A stretch of DNA of 64,000 nt from an uncultured Pseudomonadota bacterium (GCA_964491895.1 CAZBHK010000003.1:6723-70722), one strand, 5' to 3'. Positions 4,939 to 9,653 are shown, counted from the stretch's first letter. The notes: generated by a model from the sequence alone, not told the origin. Translations and numbers: made by a program.

Positions 4939-7203
4939 ATGCTGCAGAAGTTAAAGTATTTAGGAATGTTATTTTTGACTATGGGGATTCTTAAGGCCGA
5001 AGATAATTCAATATATAGCAAGATAGGTAAAACTTATTTAAAAAGCTTTGAAATACACAAGGAAGAGCCAGTTGTAAAAAACGAACAAGAAGAACTTAAC
5101 TTTTGGCAGAGATTACGTAAAAAAAAGCCAGTTCTAAATAAGGAACAATTTAAGAGGAATATTCTTGATGAAAAGGAAGCAAAACATATAGTTTTTGAGC
5201 GTTTTTCTACTTTAGATATTAAACCTGGGTTGGTATTGTCAGAGTCTCTATGGAAAGATCTTGAGCTTGTTTATGGAAATGGTGATGATTCTTCAACGAA
5301 CCTGCTTTCCATTCTTAATCGTGCTAATAGTCATATTGGACAGGCTGCGCTTGCTAAGATGCTTGTAACTCCTTTGACAGATATTAAGGAGCTAAAGAAA
5401 AGAAGGAATACTATTAAAGAGATTGCTACAAATGAAGAGCTTTTTAATGTTATAGATTCTTTACTTAATAATATGGCATCTGCAGAAGAGCGAGTTCTTT
5501 TTTTCTGGAAAGATTTTGATAAGATGACACAGAATTTTTTAAAGAAACCATTTTTTAAGTCCAATATTTTGAAAACGGTTAATCAAAGTCCTAAGGCTAT
5601 GGAAGCAATGGTAAGGTTAAGACAGCTTGGAACACCATTGGCTATTACTTGGCCGTATTTTGCAGCTGTATATGGTGTGCCTGCTGGGCATATGGCCTTA
5701 AAAGAGTTTTGGCGTAATAAAATAAATAATGCATTTAATAGTAAGACTTATGTTTATTCTGATGAGACTACTATTTTAGGGCGAATAATTAGAGCTTTTG
5801 AAGCATATAGGTCTTGCCAGATCGTCGTAGATAATGATAAAGAAGCAGATATAGTTGAAAAGTTTTTAACTGAAGTATTAGAATTTCCTAGTTCTTTTAA
5901 AGCTGGTGTTGCTAATAATCGTAACAATCTTAAATATTTAAAGTCTGAAGTTGCTGAAAATTTTAGTAATGATCTGCAAAGAAGATGGAAAAATGGTAAT
6001 AAAATTAAATTTATGGCCAATTATTCTTTAAGTGTATCTTTTTACGCAATTATTGTATATTATTTCTACATAAGATCTATAAAAAATTCTATTATAGAAG
6101 ATATAGAATTAAATTTTATATCTAAGCATTTACAGGACCAGCTCATTCAGGTTTCTAGCTTTATTAGAACTATGAGAAGCACTACTCATATCTTGTCGAA
6201 AAATGCTGTTACAGCAGCAATGCCATCTGTACAAAAAATAAATAAATTTTTTGGAGATAAGGCGTACTCAGACAAGCTTGATCAGTTATTAGAGTTATTA
6301 GATACAGATACATTTAAGGGTGAGTCATCATTCTTCTCGTTAACAGGAAGAACTTTAGCAGCATACAGCATCATGTGTGATGTTAAGGATGAACTTGTTG
6401 AAGTTATGGAAGCTATAGGAGAAGTTGAAGCACATTTTTCTATTGCTAAGCTTTATAAAGAATTTAAAGATGAGAAGGTTGGATATTGCTTTGCTCAATA
6501 TGTAGAAGCAGATACACCTTATATAGCATTACAGGATTTTTGGAATCCATTCATTGATTCTAAGGTTGTTGTTTCTAACAGTATTGCTTTAGGTAATGGC
6601 TTTGGTGCTAATGCTATTATTACAGGACCTAATGCTGGTGGTAAATCAACAGTATTGAAGGCTGTATCATTATCTATTTTATTGGCTCAGAGTTTTGGTA
6701 TTGTACCAGCTAAAGAGGCTGTTATTACACCATTTTCTAAAATTAATACGCATCTTAATATCCAGGATGATATTTCAGCTAATAATTCTTTATTTAAGGC
6801 TGAGGTATTACGTTCTCAATCATTAGTTAAGATTGTAAAAGCACTTAAAGCAAAAGAGTTTAGTTTTACGATAATGGATGAGATGTTTAATGGTACATCT
6901 CCAAAAGAAGGAACCGCTGCTTCTTATACTGTAAGTAAATCACTTGCTAAATATGGGAATAGTATGTCTTTACTTGCTACACATTTCCATAAGCTTACTG
7001 ATTTAGAGAAAGATACTAATGGATTATTTAAGAACTATAAGGTTAGCGTAATTAAACATACCAATGGTCGTCTTGAATATCCATTTAGATTATTGGAAGG
7101 TATTACTGATCAAAACATAGCCTTTGATATTTTAGCACAAGAAGGCGTTCTTGATGGGTCAGAATTATTGGAAGCGCAAGGTATCATGGAATCTATCAAG
7201 TAA
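4939..7203 (+). CDS. MutS-related ATPase (domains III and V) with N-terminal signal peptide
   Basis: TGPNAGGKST Walker A, SLFKAE, MDEMFNGT, ATHF; no recognisable mismatch-binding or Smr domain; N-terminus MLQKLKYLGMLFLTMGILKA. Confidence 0.85.
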   Translation: MLQKLKYLGMLFLTMGILKAEDNSIYSKIGKTYLKSFEIHKEEPVVKNEQEELNFWQRLRKKKPVLNKEQFKRNILDEKEAKHIVFERFSTLDIKPGLVLSESLWKDLELVYGNGDDSSTNLLSILNRANSHIGQAALAKMLVTPLTDIKELKKRRNTIKEIATNEELFNVIDSLLNNMASAEERVLFFWKDFDKMTQNFLKKPFFKSNILKTVNQSPKAMEAMVRLRQLGTPLAITWPYFAAVYGVPAGHMALKEFWRNKINNAFNSKTYVYSDETTILGRIIRAFEAYRSCQIVVDNDKEADIVEKFLTEVLEFPSSFKAGVANNRNNLKYLKSEVAENFSNDLQRRWKNGNKIKFMANYSLSVSFYAIIVYYFYIRSIKNSIIEDIELNFISKHLQDQLIQVSSFIRTMRSTTHILSKNAVTAAMPSVQKINKFFGDKAYSDKLDQLLELLDTDTFKGESSFFSLTGRTLAAYSIMCDVKDELVEVMEAIGEVEAHFSIAKLYKEFKDEKVGYCFAQYVEADTPYIALQDFWNPFIDSKVVVSNSIALGNGFGANAIITGPNAGGKSTVLKAVSLSILLAQSFGIVPAKEAVITPFSKINTHLNIQDDISANNSLFKAEVLRSQSLVKIVKALKAKEFSFTIMDEMFNGTSPKEGTAASYTVSKSLAKYGNSMSLLATHFHKLTDLEKDTNGLFKNYKVSVIKHTNGRLEYPFRLLEGITDQNIAFDILAQEGVLDGSELLEAQGIMESIK

Positions 7204-7225
7204 ATATTTTTTTAAATCAAAAGTG

Positions 7226-7258: not shown

Positions 7259-7316
7259 GTAAGTAGCTTGTGCTAATCTATATCCTTGGGTTAAAATATG
7301 GTAAAAAGGTAAGATA

Positions 7317-9653
7317 ATGAAAAAGTTTAGTTATTTAATATTATTTTTTTCAAATCTTTTTTCATATTCTAATCAAGATGAATCTATTTATAAAAATATA
7401 GAGAAAGTATATTTAAAATCTTTTGATCTTAGTAAAAATGATGATCAAGAACAGGCTGTGTTAGGAATGGCGTTACCTAGGCCTTCTGATTTTATACTAA
7501 AGAAAATTATATTTGAGGTTCTTTCTAAATATTCTAAGACAATTTCTGGAACAGTTATAGATGAATCTTTATGGAAAGATCTAGAGCTTTTTTATGGTTC
7601 TGGAAAGGATTCTTCAGTTAATCTTTTTTCTAAGATTGATCGTACTGAAACAAATGCAGGTAAGATTGTTTTAGCAAGAATATTAGCGACACCAATTGTG
7701 AATATTGCTGAATTAACCAAGAGACAGAATGCTATTAAAGAATTAGTTGATAAGCCAGGATTATTACTTCGTTGTAAGCAATTGTTATCTGAGTTAAAGC
7801 AGTCAGAAGAGCAATTATTAGCATTTTGGAATGAAGATCAATTTATTAATAAAACATTATTTCAGAAACTTTACTTTAAAAAACTTAAATTTTTGAATCA
7901 AAGTCCAATAGCACTGGAAGTTAAAAGACGTCTTGGTATTGTCAGTCCTTTTTGGGGCACATATGAGAAAATGGTCTTGTTTTCTGCTATGAGGCATTTT
8001 GTTGGTAATTGGATAAAGTATGAATACATTACAAAACAACAAGAGAGAAAATTTAGGATTTTGAATAACCTTAATCCAAATGCATTTTTTAATATGTCTC
8101 AGGCTTATCGTAATGCAAAATATTATGGTGGAGAGATTTCTGGAGTTGCGGAGTTATTAATAGGTAGTATTGCTGGTATTGATATCAAAAATTTACCAGA
8201 GGATAAAAATGCAGTTCGTGAAATATATTTGGAGAATCTTTGCAGCGCTGAGAACTTTATAAAAAATAATCCATCTAAAGAGCAGTTTTTCGAAAAAGAA
8301 TTGAAAGATTTTTCACAAGATGTTACATCCCTGGATGAATTTAAATGGATAGTTAACAAGCTTAAAAATGGTGGGGATAGCCTAGCAGGAATAATAGACT
8401 CTGAGTCATCTGATTATGATGTTAAGTTGCAACAAGGGGTTTCAATAGGGCTTGCTGTTTTATGTGGGTGTTTATTAGTTTTTGAAATTCAAAATATAAT
8501 TCCTAAAATTAAGGATGAATTAGAACGGATATCTTTGACCAACTACCTTCAAAAGCGCTTATCATGTATAGGCTCCTTTTTTAAAGTTTTAGGAAGTCTT
8601 AATTTATTGGTATTAGCAAGTAATGATTTAAGGGGTGGTTTATTATTACATAATCAGATTGTGCCTTTATTCGGTAAATTTTCTAAGTGCTCAGAGAAGC
8701 TTAGAAAATTAATTTCTATTGTTTCATCTAATACCTTTAATAATGGTTCTAGCTATTTTTCATATACGGGAAGATCACTAGCAGCATATCAATTGATGTT
8801 CGATATTCAAAATGATATGGGTCCAGTACTTGAAGCTCTTGGAGAAATAGATGCATATGTTTCTATTGCTAAACTTTATAAAGAATTTGAAAATAAGTGT
8901 GTAAAATATTGTTTTGCTAGCTATAAAGAAGAAGAGCATCCATATTTTAATTTGAAAGAATTTTGGAATCCATTTGTTAATTGTAAAGTTGTTGTTCCTA
9001 ATAGTTTGGAACTTGGTGGAGATAAACAGGCTTCTAATATTGTTTTAACAGGACCTAATGCTGGTGGTAAGTCAACCATATTAAAAGGAATCACTATAAA
9101 TTTATTATTTGCTCAGACATTGGGTATCGCTCCAGCATCAGAGGTAACAATTACACCTTTTTCTAAGATAAATAGTTATTTGAATATTACTGATGATTTG
9201 ACTGCTGGTAATTCTTTATTTAGGGCAGAGGTTTTGAGAGCTCAGTCTTTGATACGAACGGTTAAGGCATTAAAAGATAAACAATTTAGTTTTAGTATTA
9301 TGGATGAGATGTTTAGTGGTACTTCTCCGAAAGAAGGAGAAGCTGCTTCTTATGCTGTTACTAAGTATTTAGGTGAGTGTAACAATAGTATGTCTGTGAT
9401 CGCGACACATTTCCCAATGCTTACTACATTGGCTGAAGATACTAATGGTGTATTCAAAAATTGCAAAGTGGCTGTTTCTAAAAATATAGATGGTGGCTTA
9501 GTTTATCCATACAAGCTTGAAAATGGTTTATCTGATCAACATATAGCATTTGAGATACTTGTTAATGAAGGTGTCTTGGATTATTCGGTACTTGGTATGG
9601 CGCATAACTTATTAAGGAAGAGATTTCCTGCTTTGTATTCAGAAGCTAGATAG
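7317..9653 (+). CDS. MutS-related ATPase with signal peptide, tandem paralog
   Basis: TGPNAGGKST, SLFRAE, MDEMFSGTSPKEG, ATHF; shares ESLWKDLEL and FWNPF blocks with the upstream gene. Confidence 0.85.
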   Translation: MKKFSYLILFFSNLFSYSNQDESIYKNIEKVYLKSFDLSKNDDQEQAVLGMALPRPSDFILKKIIFEVLSKYSKTISGTVIDESLWKDLELFYGSGKDSSVNLFSKIDRTETNAGKIVLARILATPIVNIAELTKRQNAIKELVDKPGLLLRCKQLLSELKQSEEQLLAFWNEDQFINKTLFQKLYFKKLKFLNQSPIALEVKRRLGIVSPFWGTYEKMVLFSAMRHFVGNWIKYEYITKQQERKFRILNNLNPNAFFNMSQAYRNAKYYGGEISGVAELLIGSIAGIDIKNLPEDKNAVREIYLENLCSAENFIKNNPSKEQFFEKELKDFSQDVTSLDEFKWIVNKLKNGGDSLAGIIDSESSDYDVKLQQGVSIGLAVLCGCLLVFEIQNIIPKIKDELERISLTNYLQKRLSCIGSFFKVLGSLNLLVLASNDLRGGLLLHNQIVPLFGKFSKCSEKLRKLISIVSSNTFNNGSSYFSYTGRSLAAYQLMFDIQNDMGPVLEALGEIDAYVSIAKLYKEFENKCVKYCFASYKEEEHPYFNLKEFWNPFVNCKVVVPNSLELGGDKQASNIVLTGPNAGGKSTILKGITINLLFAQTLGIAPASEVTITPFSKINSYLNITDDLTAGNSLFRAEVLRAQSLIRTVKALKDKQFSFSIMDEMFSGTSPKEGEAASYAVTKYLGECNNSMSVIATHFPMLTTLAEDTNGVFKNCKVAVSKNIDGGLVYPYKLENGLSDQHIAFEILVNEGVLDYSVLGMAHNLLRKRFPALYSEAR

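Follow-up and report, generated by a model that had tools for sequence, protein, structure and literature searches.

The window analysed here, a 64,000-nucleotide stretch of DNA from an uncultured, tiny intracellular bacterium of the Dependentiae (Babeliales), carries two neighbouring open reading frames on the plus strand, p1 (4939-7203, 754 aa) and p2 (7317-9653, 778 aa), both encoding MutS8-type ATPases as judged from Pfam matches to MutS_III and MutS_V, complemented by an AF2 model for p1 and by BLASTP for p2. The two proteins are 38% identical along their full length (BLASTP, E 1e-166), which confirms the tandem paralogs proposed in an earlier note on this DNA, and a p2 ortholog is found in the same tandem order in a genome of the sister genus (G003). 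A promoter-like site (TTGACA-18-TATAGT, 11 of 12 positions; 4866..4895, plus strand) lies 44 bp upstream of p1; it is a consensus match only, and promoter-like sites in the region are not above shuffles (23 vs 29.5). This site faces a divergent promoter-like site on the groES side (4833-4805). Between p1 and p2, a 12-bp stem followed by a T run forms a terminator-like hairpin (7225..7254, plus strand; pattern match only), one class of site of which 5 were found where 2.2 were expected.

The MutS core (domain III) has been retained in both proteins, as has a complete ATPase (domain V). MutS_III (N-terminal part) and MutS_V score above the Pfam cut-off in p1 and p2, and an alignment of 29 family members shows no variation in the Walker A motif GPNAGGKST, the S-x-F-x-x-E signature, the DE of Walker B or the TH motif, in agreement with the intact ATPase motifs noticed earlier. 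On the plus strand, the N-terminal part of domain III occupies aa 95-217 of p1 (5221..5589; Pfam, AF2 model and superposition), while the rest of domain III, the domain V ATPase and a C-terminal helix-turn-helix occupy aa 421-754 (6199..7200; Pfam, alignment and model), with Walker A at 6625-6651; the domain V ATPase of p2 spans aa 545-778 (8949..9650; Pfam and alignment), with Walker A at 9051-9077. Residues 95-754 of the p1 model (pLDDT 79.9, pTM 0.76) superpose on residues 264-797 of E. coli MutS (Z 31.4, rmsd 3.7, 428 residues), and fold matches to MutS/MSH structures reach Z 31-32 over ~430 residues. Pfam detected no MutS_I (PF01624), MutS_II (PF05188), MutS_IV (PF05190), Smr or HNH domain in p1 or p2: the mismatch-recognition and nuclease domains are missing, as the earlier note had claimed, and so are the connector and clamp domains.

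The same note had set the pair apart from ordinary MutS1 and MutS2, and the data agree; no outcome on the note's own list of refuting results came up. As MutS1, p1 scores 139.5 against a cut-off of 480 (PRK05399) and 103 against 641.7 bits (TIGR01070), p2 falling as far below the same NCBIfam cut-offs (135.3 and 107 bits); as MutS2 (TIGR01069, cut-off 400), p1 reaches 85.3 bits and p2 84.9, and neither has an Smr domain. In a tree sampling 8 MutS1 and 6 MutS2 proteins, 36 giant-virus relatives and Dependentiae family members, the Dependentiae and viral sequences group together in a single clade with an SH-aLRT support of 100 and a stem of 1.63, and MutS1 and MutS2 fall outside it. With MutS1, p1 and p2 share the fold of domains III and V (Z ~31), the ATPase motifs and the C-terminal helix-turn-helix, but not domains I, II and IV. 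MutS2, a cytoplasmic endonuclease and ribosome-rescue MutS paralog, is matched by the p1 model at Z 26-28 and likewise has no domains I and II; p1 and p2 differ from it in having no clamp, KOW or Smr domain. Elsewhere in this 97.6%-complete genome, MutS_I and MutS_IV matches occur only in a canonical 865-aa MutS1 on contig 7, MutL is encoded separately from p1 and p2, and a Smr-bearing MutS2 was not found.

The family would be best filed as MutS8, since predicted structures match the Tetraselmis virus 1 (TetV-1) protein named 'MutS subfamily 8' (E 8e-22 and a target TM-score of 0.72 for p1; E 1e-27 and 0.76 for a giant-virus relative), with a viral 'subfamily 7' protein well below (target TM-score 0.35). 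This label rests on one annotated protein, two unlabelled viral proteins matching better, and it sets the family beside TetV-1 and the giant-virus relatives. Ogata and colleagues are said to have defined the MutS8 subfamily, whose founding members come from PoV, PpV and Amoebophilus, in 2011 as having domains III and V only, which is the architecture that Pfam finds in p1 and p2; the p1/p2 family shares it with MutS8, together with a length of about 530-780 aa. The family is multi-copy and often tandem. Of 201 genomes sampled from the order, 178 contain it (best E-value 1e-53 or better); 38 of 40 relatives have a match with an E-value of 1e-40 or better, two of the relatives holding arrays of up to six copies, and at least 150 cluster representatives (50% identity clusters) match along their full length; no conserved partner gene was seen beside it. 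In IMG/VR, 135 loci encode a relative and, among the 80 kept, 79 have a full-length ORF (245-494 bits). Full-length relatives sit on verified giant-virus contigs, the neighbours at 8 scanned viral loci including minor capsid P11, TBP, topoisomerase II and Erv1, and hhalign aligns the bacterial family with 35 giant-virus relatives over 565 columns (probability 100, E 7e-108); by the same comparison, the bacterial and viral centres are homologous. The link that the earlier note drew to the short III+V MutS proteins of giant viruses and amoeba symbionts was right, the family being the bacterial side of the proteins annotated as MutS subfamily 8.

A related pair has been described in another intracellular bacterium. 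Mann et al. (2017; PMC5698495) present CAHE_0017 and CAHE_0267 of Cardinium hertigii as expressed MutS8-affiliated paralogs (~40% identity) with predicted signal peptides, propose them as secreted host-interaction candidates and treat them as DNA-interacting proteins. The same paper reports Amoebophilus homologs without signal peptides (PMC5698495), so that export is not universal in bacteria. Two paralogs of similar divergence (~40% vs 38% identity), putative N-terminal signals and an obligate intracellular bacterium are common to both cases, a comparison made by description only and between a member of the Bacteroidota (Cardinium) and one of the Dependentiae. Given this precedent, p1 and p2 belong to a type of protein already on record, although an uncharacterised one, and the idea of a signal-peptide MutS8 pair is not itself new.

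Signal-peptide-like segments open both proteins: aa 1-20 in p1 (4939..4998, plus strand; MLQKLK, YLGMLFLTMGIL, then KA before E, a cleavage site placed by eye and a family-wide pattern) and aa 1-18 in p2 (7317..7370, plus strand; MKK, FSYLILFFSNLF, then SYS before N). In each, the n-region is basic, the hydrophobic stretch has no charges and the residues at -1/-3 are small, with cleavage predicted by eye between GILKA and ED in p1 and between FSYS and NQ in p2. A conserved block follows, SIYSKIGKTYLKSF at aa 24-37 of p1 (S24-F37; 5008..5049, plus strand; predicted helix 25-38) and SIYKNIEKVYLKSF at aa 23-36 of p2 (S23-F36; 7383..7424, plus strand; sequence, BLASTP and alignment), which reproduces letter for letter the shared S-I-Y..Y-L-K-S-F block already pointed out; its family consensus is Y..I....LKS (29-member alignment). 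Signal peptides were called by a fixed composite rule of hydropathy and charge, which needs a best 11-residue window of at least 1.9, the c-region being judged by eye. This rule is passed by p1 and by 132 of 172 bacterial family members, by none of 72 viral relatives, by none of 43 MutS1/MutS2 proteins and, among the 641 ORFs of this genome with a length of 150 aa or more, by 152 (24%). The remaining 40 bacterial members fail it, some being visibly truncated gene calls, and so does p2 (best window 1.63); the earlier reading of two Sec-type N-termini thus stands by eye for both proteins and by the rule for p1 only. Across the 172 bacterial members, the n-region is basic and without acidic residues in 86%, with a median uncharged stretch of 19. 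Such a pattern is characteristic of Sec signals whose N-terminus stays inside, an orientation that would place the following domain outside. The signal-peptide-like segment and the conserved block distinguish the bacterial proteins from viral MutS8.

The centre of p1 (aa 218-420; 5590..6198, plus strand; hydropathy, model and alignment) lies at the site of the MutS clamp domain IV, where an insert that evolves fast and is modelled with low confidence (265-355) lies between two long 'lever' helices (218-267 and 356-420). These helices bear weakly hydrophobic segments (230-254 and 358-381), whose best Kyte-Doolittle 19-residue windows are 0.96 and 1.30, and membrane insertion of p1 (best window 1.30) is unsupported. 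In p2 (aa 201-435; 7917..8621, plus strand; hydropathy and alignment), the variable insert is long, strong hydrophobicity is confined to a single helix that comes after it (aa 377-395; 8445-8501, plus strand; best Kyte-Doolittle window 2.10), and the position equivalent to the first helix is charged. As predicted from the sequence, a variable centre separates well-aligned ends and is the least conserved part of the proteins: insert identity is 20% between p1 and p2 and 24-25% between each protein and its sister-genus ortholog, against 57-68% for the ATPase in the same comparisons. That this centre is bounded by hydrophobic helices is true of the p2 helix at 377-395 but not of the first-helix position of p2, and hardly of the weak p1 segments.

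Hydropathy across the family is graded. The best centre window of bacterial members has a median of 1.65, barely above the value for the remainder of the protein (1.55); more than half of these members have a centre of no more than moderate hydropathy, and 23 of 172, p2 included, reach at least 2.0. At a lenient threshold, 104 of 172 have at least two hydrophobic centre segments, and the charges flanking these segments give no positive-inside signal either way in the bacterial family. All 72 viral relatives reach at least 1.6 and 50 of them at least 2.0, their centres containing runs of ~28-35 apolar residues with three invariant prolines. The bacterial centre is less hydrophobic than that of viral MutS8. 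It is also far longer in the present pair, where 170 aa (p1) and 204 aa (p2) separate the anchors, than in the viral proteins (median 93).

We tentatively propose, as the leading reading although we would give it slightly less than an even chance, that p1 and p2, which fall in the MutS8 branch of MutS/ABC-type ATPases, are predicted Sec-exported ATPases with no part in repair, whose place of action would lie beyond the bacterial cytoplasm and probably on the host side. Sec would carry them across the inner membrane, the signal being cut by one of the two signal peptidases I of the genome, and they would then work outside the bacterial cytoplasm as ATP-driven dimers. MutS proteins form their ATP sites across two domain V copies; those of p1 and p2 would be formed in the same way, and ATP binding would move the two lever helices and, with them, the hydrophobic tips and the variable insert. 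Since synthesis of the viral relatives would take place in the host cytoplasm and the bacterial proteins would need an export signal, the common place of action would most likely be the host side, that is the host cytosol or a host or compartment membrane, and the role would be in shaping or holding the replication niche rather than in DNA repair. The earlier note's reading of a repurposed ATPase family, exported or membrane-inserted and possibly host-directed, rather than mismatch repair, is supported, with export, signal cleavage, membrane insertion and any host target putative; the word 'clamp' is doubtful because the clamp domain is precisely the missing part. A comparable logic exists in atlastin and other hairpin-anchored NTPases, whose head dimerises and hydrolyses nucleotides and which also have a lever made of helices and a hydrophobic hairpin. 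The likeness is of logic only, as the p1/p2 head is an ABC-type ATPase and not a GTPase, and there is no homology.

A classic type II secretion substrate is soluble, and centres with a hydropathy of at least 2.0 would be expected to be retained in the bacterial inner membrane, which argues against export to the host side. Also on the negative side are the 24% of ORFs in this genome that pass the signal-peptide rule, the failure of p2 and of 40 bacterial members to pass it, the weak centre of p1, the Amoebophilus homologs and the lack of a conserved partner gene. In favour of the leading reading, the genome encodes three secretins besides its two signal peptidases I, and two ATP/ADP translocase homologs. 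Precedents in the lineage point the same way: signal sequences are predicted on 44% of C. destructans proteins (PMC6561590), and in Babela type II secretion is given as the only secretion system, with signal-peptide ankyrin and AAA-ATPase proteins predicted to reach the host cytoplasm (PMC4378268).

In a less probable alternative, for which we would give about one chance in four, p1 and p2 may be envelope proteins of the bacterium, in which, once Sec has targeted them, the central helices form an inner-membrane hairpin anchor, the MutS halves are periplasmic and the insert cytoplasmic; the ATPase could then act as a sensor or mechanical transducer across the membrane and not as a secreted effector. 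Strong centre segments, such as that of p2, should indeed stop transfer in the inner membrane, and a signal peptide followed by an even number of membrane passes leaves both soluble halves outside, the fold requiring them on the same side. The translocase homologs imply that ATP must cross the periplasm, so that an energy parasite importing host ATP would have ATP there while inside its host. However, viral relatives need no such envelope, more than half of the bacterial centres are only moderately hydrophobic and that of p1 is weak, and the insert has no positive-inside bias. Moreover, we know of no periplasmic MutS or ABC-type ATPase.

A cytoplasmic role, either in DNA transactions (repair or anti-recombination) or MutS2-like at the ribosome, with the N-terminal stretch as a tether or irrelevant, appears improbable. 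The names under which such proteins are usually annotated, 'DNA mismatch repair protein MutS' or 'MutS8', point to work on DNA, and giant-virus papers class MutS8 with repair genes (PMC6459981, PMC6163766); the MutS core and ATPase are intact, and the failure to find a Smr-bearing MutS2 leaves a MutS2-like role vacant. Against this, DNA-binding domains I and IV are absent, the N-terminal pattern would send the next domain outside, MutS1 and MutL are already encoded in the genome, and it is uncommon for a repair gene to occur in tandem arrays of many copies whose inserts evolve fast. Least probable of all is a soluble exported ring, periplasmic or in the host, in which lever-tip helices would stay out of any membrane and pack on those of the partner subunit, and a dimer would encircle a non-DNA cargo: the lever tips of both subunits do meet in MutS dimers, and the centre of p1, like that of many bacterial members, does not exceed buried parts of the same proteins in hydropathy, but the viral centres, homologous to the bacterial ones, have the apolar runs, invariant prolines and hydropathy of typical membrane segments.

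It is tempting to speculate further, although we regard the following as a long shot, that MutS8 as a whole is an ATP-driven membrane machine, uninvolved in DNA repair, in which a hydrophobic hairpin replaces the MutS clamp. Giant viruses would share it with intracellular bacteria that are not related and live in protists and insects (Dependentiae, Cardinium), and all would use it to tether, bend or hold host-derived membranes round their replication sites; the bacteria would have added Sec signal peptides and softened the hairpin for exit, and the p1/p2 insert may be a specificity element facing the host or the lumen.

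The two adjacent MutS-like ORFs, p1 (4939-7203, forward strand, 754 amino acids) and p2 (7317-9653, forward strand, 778 amino acids), encode proteins that share 38% identity over their full length (E 1e-166). In both, Pfam detects the N-terminal part of a MutS domain III and a MutS domain V and nothing else: domains I, II and IV, Smr and HNH are found in neither protein. The ORF calls and the Pfam search thus confirm an earlier note, made from the sequence alone, which had described two adjacent ORFs with a MutS ATPase and no mismatch-recognition or nuclease domain. The S-I-Y...Y-L-K-S-F block reported in that note lies exactly at S24-F37 of p1 and S23-F36 of p2, straight after an N-terminal segment that combines a basic beginning with a hydrophobic, uncharged run. 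The pair is divergent from a groES (97 amino acids) and groEL (543 amino acids) operon (2789-4725, reverse strand), and the 213-bp spacer between groES and p1 carries facing promoter-like sites (4833-4805, reverse strand, and 4866-4895, forward strand). A terminator-like hairpin (12-bp stem and T run) is present between p1 and p2 at 7225-7254, which may mean separate transcription even though the genes stand only 113 bp apart. Downstream of the pair lie a LOG-like gene and one for a DeoC-type aldolase. In a genome of a sister genus (G003) the p1-p2 tandem recurs, followed by genes matching these two in size and orientation; the G003 contig ends short of the groES position and the synteny comparison covers the downstream side. 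Also close downstream of the pair are genes for a P-type cation ATPase (865 amino acids, 12165-14762, forward strand) and an F-type ATP synthase alpha/beta subunit (15309-16823, reverse strand). A 133-amino-acid ORF (11634-12035, forward strand) has a signal-peptide-like start, a very acidic Glu/Pro-rich tail and no Pfam match.

Several lines of evidence indicate that p1 and p2, which have an unusually long insert, belong to MutS8, a known kind of MutS with domains III and V only, reportedly defined by Ogata et al. in 2011: (i), NCBIfam equivalog scores of both proteins for MutS1 and MutS2 are far under the cut-off. (ii), in a maximum-likelihood tree built on domain V and its surroundings (quick IQ-TREE, LG+G4; 96 rows, namely 46 bacterial sequences, 36 of the 72 non-redundant viral ones, eight MutS1 and six MutS2), the family forms its own clade with giant-virus relatives (SH-aLRT 100, stem 1.63), apart from MutS1 and MutS2. 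(iii), our p1 model and a second model, made for a viral relative (pLDDT 85.6, pTM 0.82), share the same three best matches in a viral-structure library, a Yasminevirus MutS-family protein, an unnamed entry and the 'DNA mismatch repair ATPase MutS subfamily 8' of Tetraselmis virus 1. The last is matched with a target TM-score of 0.72 (p1) or 0.76 (viral relative), and all three rank far ahead of the 'MutS subfamily 7' protein of the same virus (0.35). (iv), the nearest ESM Atlas clusters contain MutS_V with or without MutS_III and are labelled mostly Nucleocytoviricota, with one Bacteroidota. Within the tree the viral sequences fall into a single clade (SH-aLRT 100) and the base of the bacterial part lacks resolution; a topology with the bacterial sequences constrained together scored higher and was not rejected (p-AU 0.80), the root falling on a long branch.

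The viral relatives were collected by scanning IMG/VR with a profile of 29 bacterial family members, which returned 135 stretches encoding relatives. Among the best 80 loci, which were kept, 79 hold a full-length ORF (245-494 bits, about positions 60-678 of the 680 of the profile) and the remaining one a 352-residue fragment. These loci are real giant-virus contigs and not mis-binned bacteria, as judged from the neighbours at eight of the 80 (113 ORFs), which include minor capsid protein P11, DUF7197, DUF5871, a TATA-binding protein, eukaryote-type topoisomerase II, topoisomerase IB, Erv1/Alr and thymidine kinase, and from their recurring order: in five of the eight (L113, L106, L121, L092 and L139), P11 and DUF7197 precede the MutS8-like gene and a SAP-domain gene, with the TATA-binding protein and topoisomerase II genes further along. 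Such conserved gene order suggests that the MutS8-like gene is a core, vertically inherited viral gene. Aligned profile to profile, the bacterial family and 35 viral sequences match with a probability of 100 (E 7e-108, 565 columns), bacterial positions 88-684 falling on viral positions 48-616 with the first apolar helix included. A search of a phage collection gave matches to domain V only.

An AlphaFold2 model of p1 built on the bacterial alignment (mean pLDDT 79.9, pTM 0.76) comprises a signal-like helix (residues 2-17), a helix formed by the conserved block (25-38), a helical domain (78-216) and two very long helices carrying hydrophobic segments (218-267 and 356-420), which enclose a low-confidence insert (265-355); the ATPase follows the second long helix. 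VIA-align superposes the model on MutS, MSH2, MSH3 and MSH6 chains with Z of 31-32 over about 430 residues, residues 95-754 of p1 aligning with 264-797 of Escherichia coli MutS at an rmsd of 3.7 Å. In the model the N- and C-terminal helical parts pack as MutS domain III, so that neither could lie across a membrane from the other; the long helices correspond to the MutS levers, and the insert with its apolar segments takes the position of the clamp. Walker A, S-x-F-x-x-E, the Walker B DE, G-T and T-H are invariant in the bacterial alignment, and the motifs of p1 and p2 are those expected of an active ATPase that would, judging from the family, dimerise.

The earlier note had also singled out a variable centre, and the insert is indeed the fastest-evolving part of the protein, with 24-25% identity between orthologs versus 63-68% in the ATPase. 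Measured between the conserved anchors LN.S..ALE and LQ..LI, the centre has a median length of 102 residues in 172 bacterial members and 93 (range 82-113) in 72 viral ones; p1 has 170 and p2 204, lengths equalled or exceeded in 13 and five of the 172, respectively. One or more apolar segments (17-residue window of at least 1.3) are present in 161/172 bacterial and all 72 viral centres, and two or more in 104/172 and 54/72. The best 19-residue window has a median of 1.65 in bacteria and 2.15 in viruses, reaching 1.6 or more in 94/172 and 72/72 and 2.0 or more in 23/172 and 50/72; in the rest of the same bacterial proteins, taken as a control, the median is 1.55 and a single one of 172 reaches 2.0. 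In the viral alignment three invariant prolines, seven residues apart, punctuate the apolar run (P191, P198 and P205 of L070:8013-9866); the bacterial family retains one of them, in an h-h-P-(L/V/I)-(Y/F) motif. The predicted apolar hairpin is thus convincing in viruses, softened in bacteria and weak in p1 (1.30). The proposal that hydrophobic helices bound the centre holds in part: p2 has one strong segment (residues 377-395, 19-residue Kyte-Doolittle value 2.10), and those of p1 are weak (0.96 and 1.30). A positive-inside test of the hairpin flanks gave no topology signal in the bacterial family, with 1.56 K+R per 15 residues before the hairpin, 1.83 after it and 1.88 in the loop, for a background of 1.56.

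The two groups part at the N-terminus. We scored a signal-peptide-like start by three rules: a best 11-residue hydropathy window of at least 1.9 in the first 35 residues, an uncharged stretch of at least 12 residues starting by residue 20, and an n-region with K or R and without D/E. A looser first heuristic had been dropped, as it passed 25% of all ORFs with implausible cleavage sites. The rules are passed by 132/172 bacterial family members and by none of the 72 non-redundant viral relatives or 43 MutS1/MutS2 proteins, against a background of 152/641 among all ORFs of at least 150 amino acids in this genome. This high background fits the lineage, considering that signal sequences are predicted on 44% of Chromulinavorax proteins (PMC6561590) and Babela has signal-peptide-bearing ankyrin proteins and AAA-ATPase/Ulp1 fusions predicted to enter the host cytoplasm (PMC4378268). 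A basic, acid-free n-region is found in 86% of the 172 bacterial sequences, with a median uncharged stretch of 19 residues; several of those that do not pass are gene calls with an evident truncation, and p2 misses by hydropathy alone (1.63). Every ORF was started at the first ATG of its open frame, and viral N-termini are therefore maximal for ATG starts; upstream of the p1 ATG the frame is open for eight codons. A predicted signal-peptide-like N-terminus is thus a hallmark of the bacterial members which the viral ones lack.

The family is widespread in the order, multi-copy and often tandem. Searching 40 same-order relatives with p1 gave a match of E 1e-40 or better in 38, usually in several, often adjacent copies; G015 and G027 gave E values near 1e-17, which is MutS1 level, and G016, a tentative member, gave 7.6e-20 with p1 and 7.7e-34 with the profile, the lower range reached by canonical MutS1. 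An array of six adjacent matches spans about 12 kb in each of G020 (contig 2, 3.7-16 kb) and G037 (contig 2, 153-166 kb), two genomes of one genus in which local amplification has gone far beyond the p1-p2 pair. Among 201 sampled genomes of the phylum, all labelled as the same order, the profile reached E 1e-30 or better in 195, with a best E of 1e-53 or better in 178, only 1e-31 to 1e-40 (the canonical MutS1 range) in 17 and no match in six, absences that are soft given that five candidates were scored per genome. When 1.84 billion cluster representatives were searched exhaustively with HMMER, at least 150 matched over the full length with more than 610 bits. The names given to such proteins are 'hypothetical protein' (Candidatus Babeliales/Dependentiae bacterium) or the generic 'DNA mismatch repair protein MutS'. 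A word search with the whole of p1 retrieved only MutS1/MutS2, via domain V, because its words were drawn from the first 500 residues, which are poorly conserved; it was rerun with residues 400-754. Several public MAG records with full-length members (L035-L049) are titled 'uncultured Pseudomonadota bacterium' and have Babeliales as nearest relatives, probably an automatic mislabelling.

The assembly holding the pair (864 kb, nine contigs, 97.6% complete) has four MutS_V loci: p1, p2, a third family member of about 634-645 amino acids on contig 1, and a canonical MutS1 gene (865 amino acids), the only locus with MutS_I and MutS_IV. MutL is encoded; a scan for the Smr domain found none in this 97.6% complete assembly, and MutS2 is accordingly missing from it. 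The genome also encodes three secretins, two signal peptidases I and two ATP/ADP translocase homologs, a TLC-type one (61342-62715, forward strand; PF03219, 96 bits) and a weaker match on contig 6, which fit an energy-parasitic lifestyle. The third paralog is convergent with one signal peptidase I gene at about 0.9 kb (ORFs 4665-5630, forward, and 6456-8393, reverse, within positions 62000-74000 of contig 1, locus L143). Five sequencing runs contain the sequence, all of groundwater-metagenome DNA and none of RNA; two may be the source itself.

The evidence on these MutS8-type proteins points away from repair and towards a host-side activity shared by two kinds of protist parasite because of (i), the export-signal contrast, (ii), the lack of DNA-binding domains and (iii), the apolar segments found in the position of the clamp. 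Since viral proteins are synthesised in the host cytoplasm, which bacterial ones can reach only if exported, the comparison argues for action on the host side; a softened hairpin is also what would be expected of a bacterial protein that must cross the Sec channel without stopping in it. We propose that p1 and p2 would be exported by Sec with cleavage of the signal, that an ATP-driven dimer would move the levers and pass this movement on to the tips, and that the site of action would lie outside the bacterial cytoplasm. The main alternative is an anchor in the bacterial inner membrane with the protein facing the periplasm. Classical rules predict such an anchor for p2 and other members of higher hydrophobicity, and the periplasm of a parasite that imports ATP must contain ATP, which makes this alternative feasible. 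For p1, with its weak segments, a soluble ring closed by apolar tips may also apply. The cytoplasmic DNA role implied by the usual annotation is the least supported: canonical repair genes are present elsewhere in the genome and p1 and p2 lack a DNA-reading domain. The earlier reading of an exported or membrane-inserted, possibly host-directed, non-repair ATPase therefore stands.

The closest precedent to the pair is found in Cardinium hertigii, which expresses two MutS8-affiliated proteins (40% identity), each with a predicted signal peptide; the authors noted that such peptides are unexpected in proteins that interact with DNA and put the two forward as candidates for secretion and host interaction, and they reported the Amoebophilus homologs to be without signal peptides (PMC5698495). 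In giant-virus papers MutS8 is listed among repair genes and used as a marker (PMC3749498, PMC6459981, PMC6163766), and the passages available from this literature (these three and PMC5698495 included) make no mention of the apolar centre. Passages of the three main Dependentiae genome papers (PMC6561590 and PMC4378268 among them) name just mutL/S/Y in passing, and no Dependentiae paper mentioning a MutS8-type family was found in the text available, supplements to the genome papers being places where these genes may be listed. The breadth and copy number in Dependentiae, the sister relation to giant-virus genes, the signal-peptide contrast between bacteria and viruses and the presence of apolar helices in place of the clamp are what the present analysis adds, and they suggest that the 'repair' label of MutS8 in virus genomes be re-examined. 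As it stands the significance is moderate; it would be high if the family proved to be a membrane machine common to giant viruses and intracellular bacteria. Type II is the sole secretion system found in Babela (PMC4378268), and the family is a concrete, testable candidate for how Dependentiae, with Sec and type II secretion only, act on their hosts.
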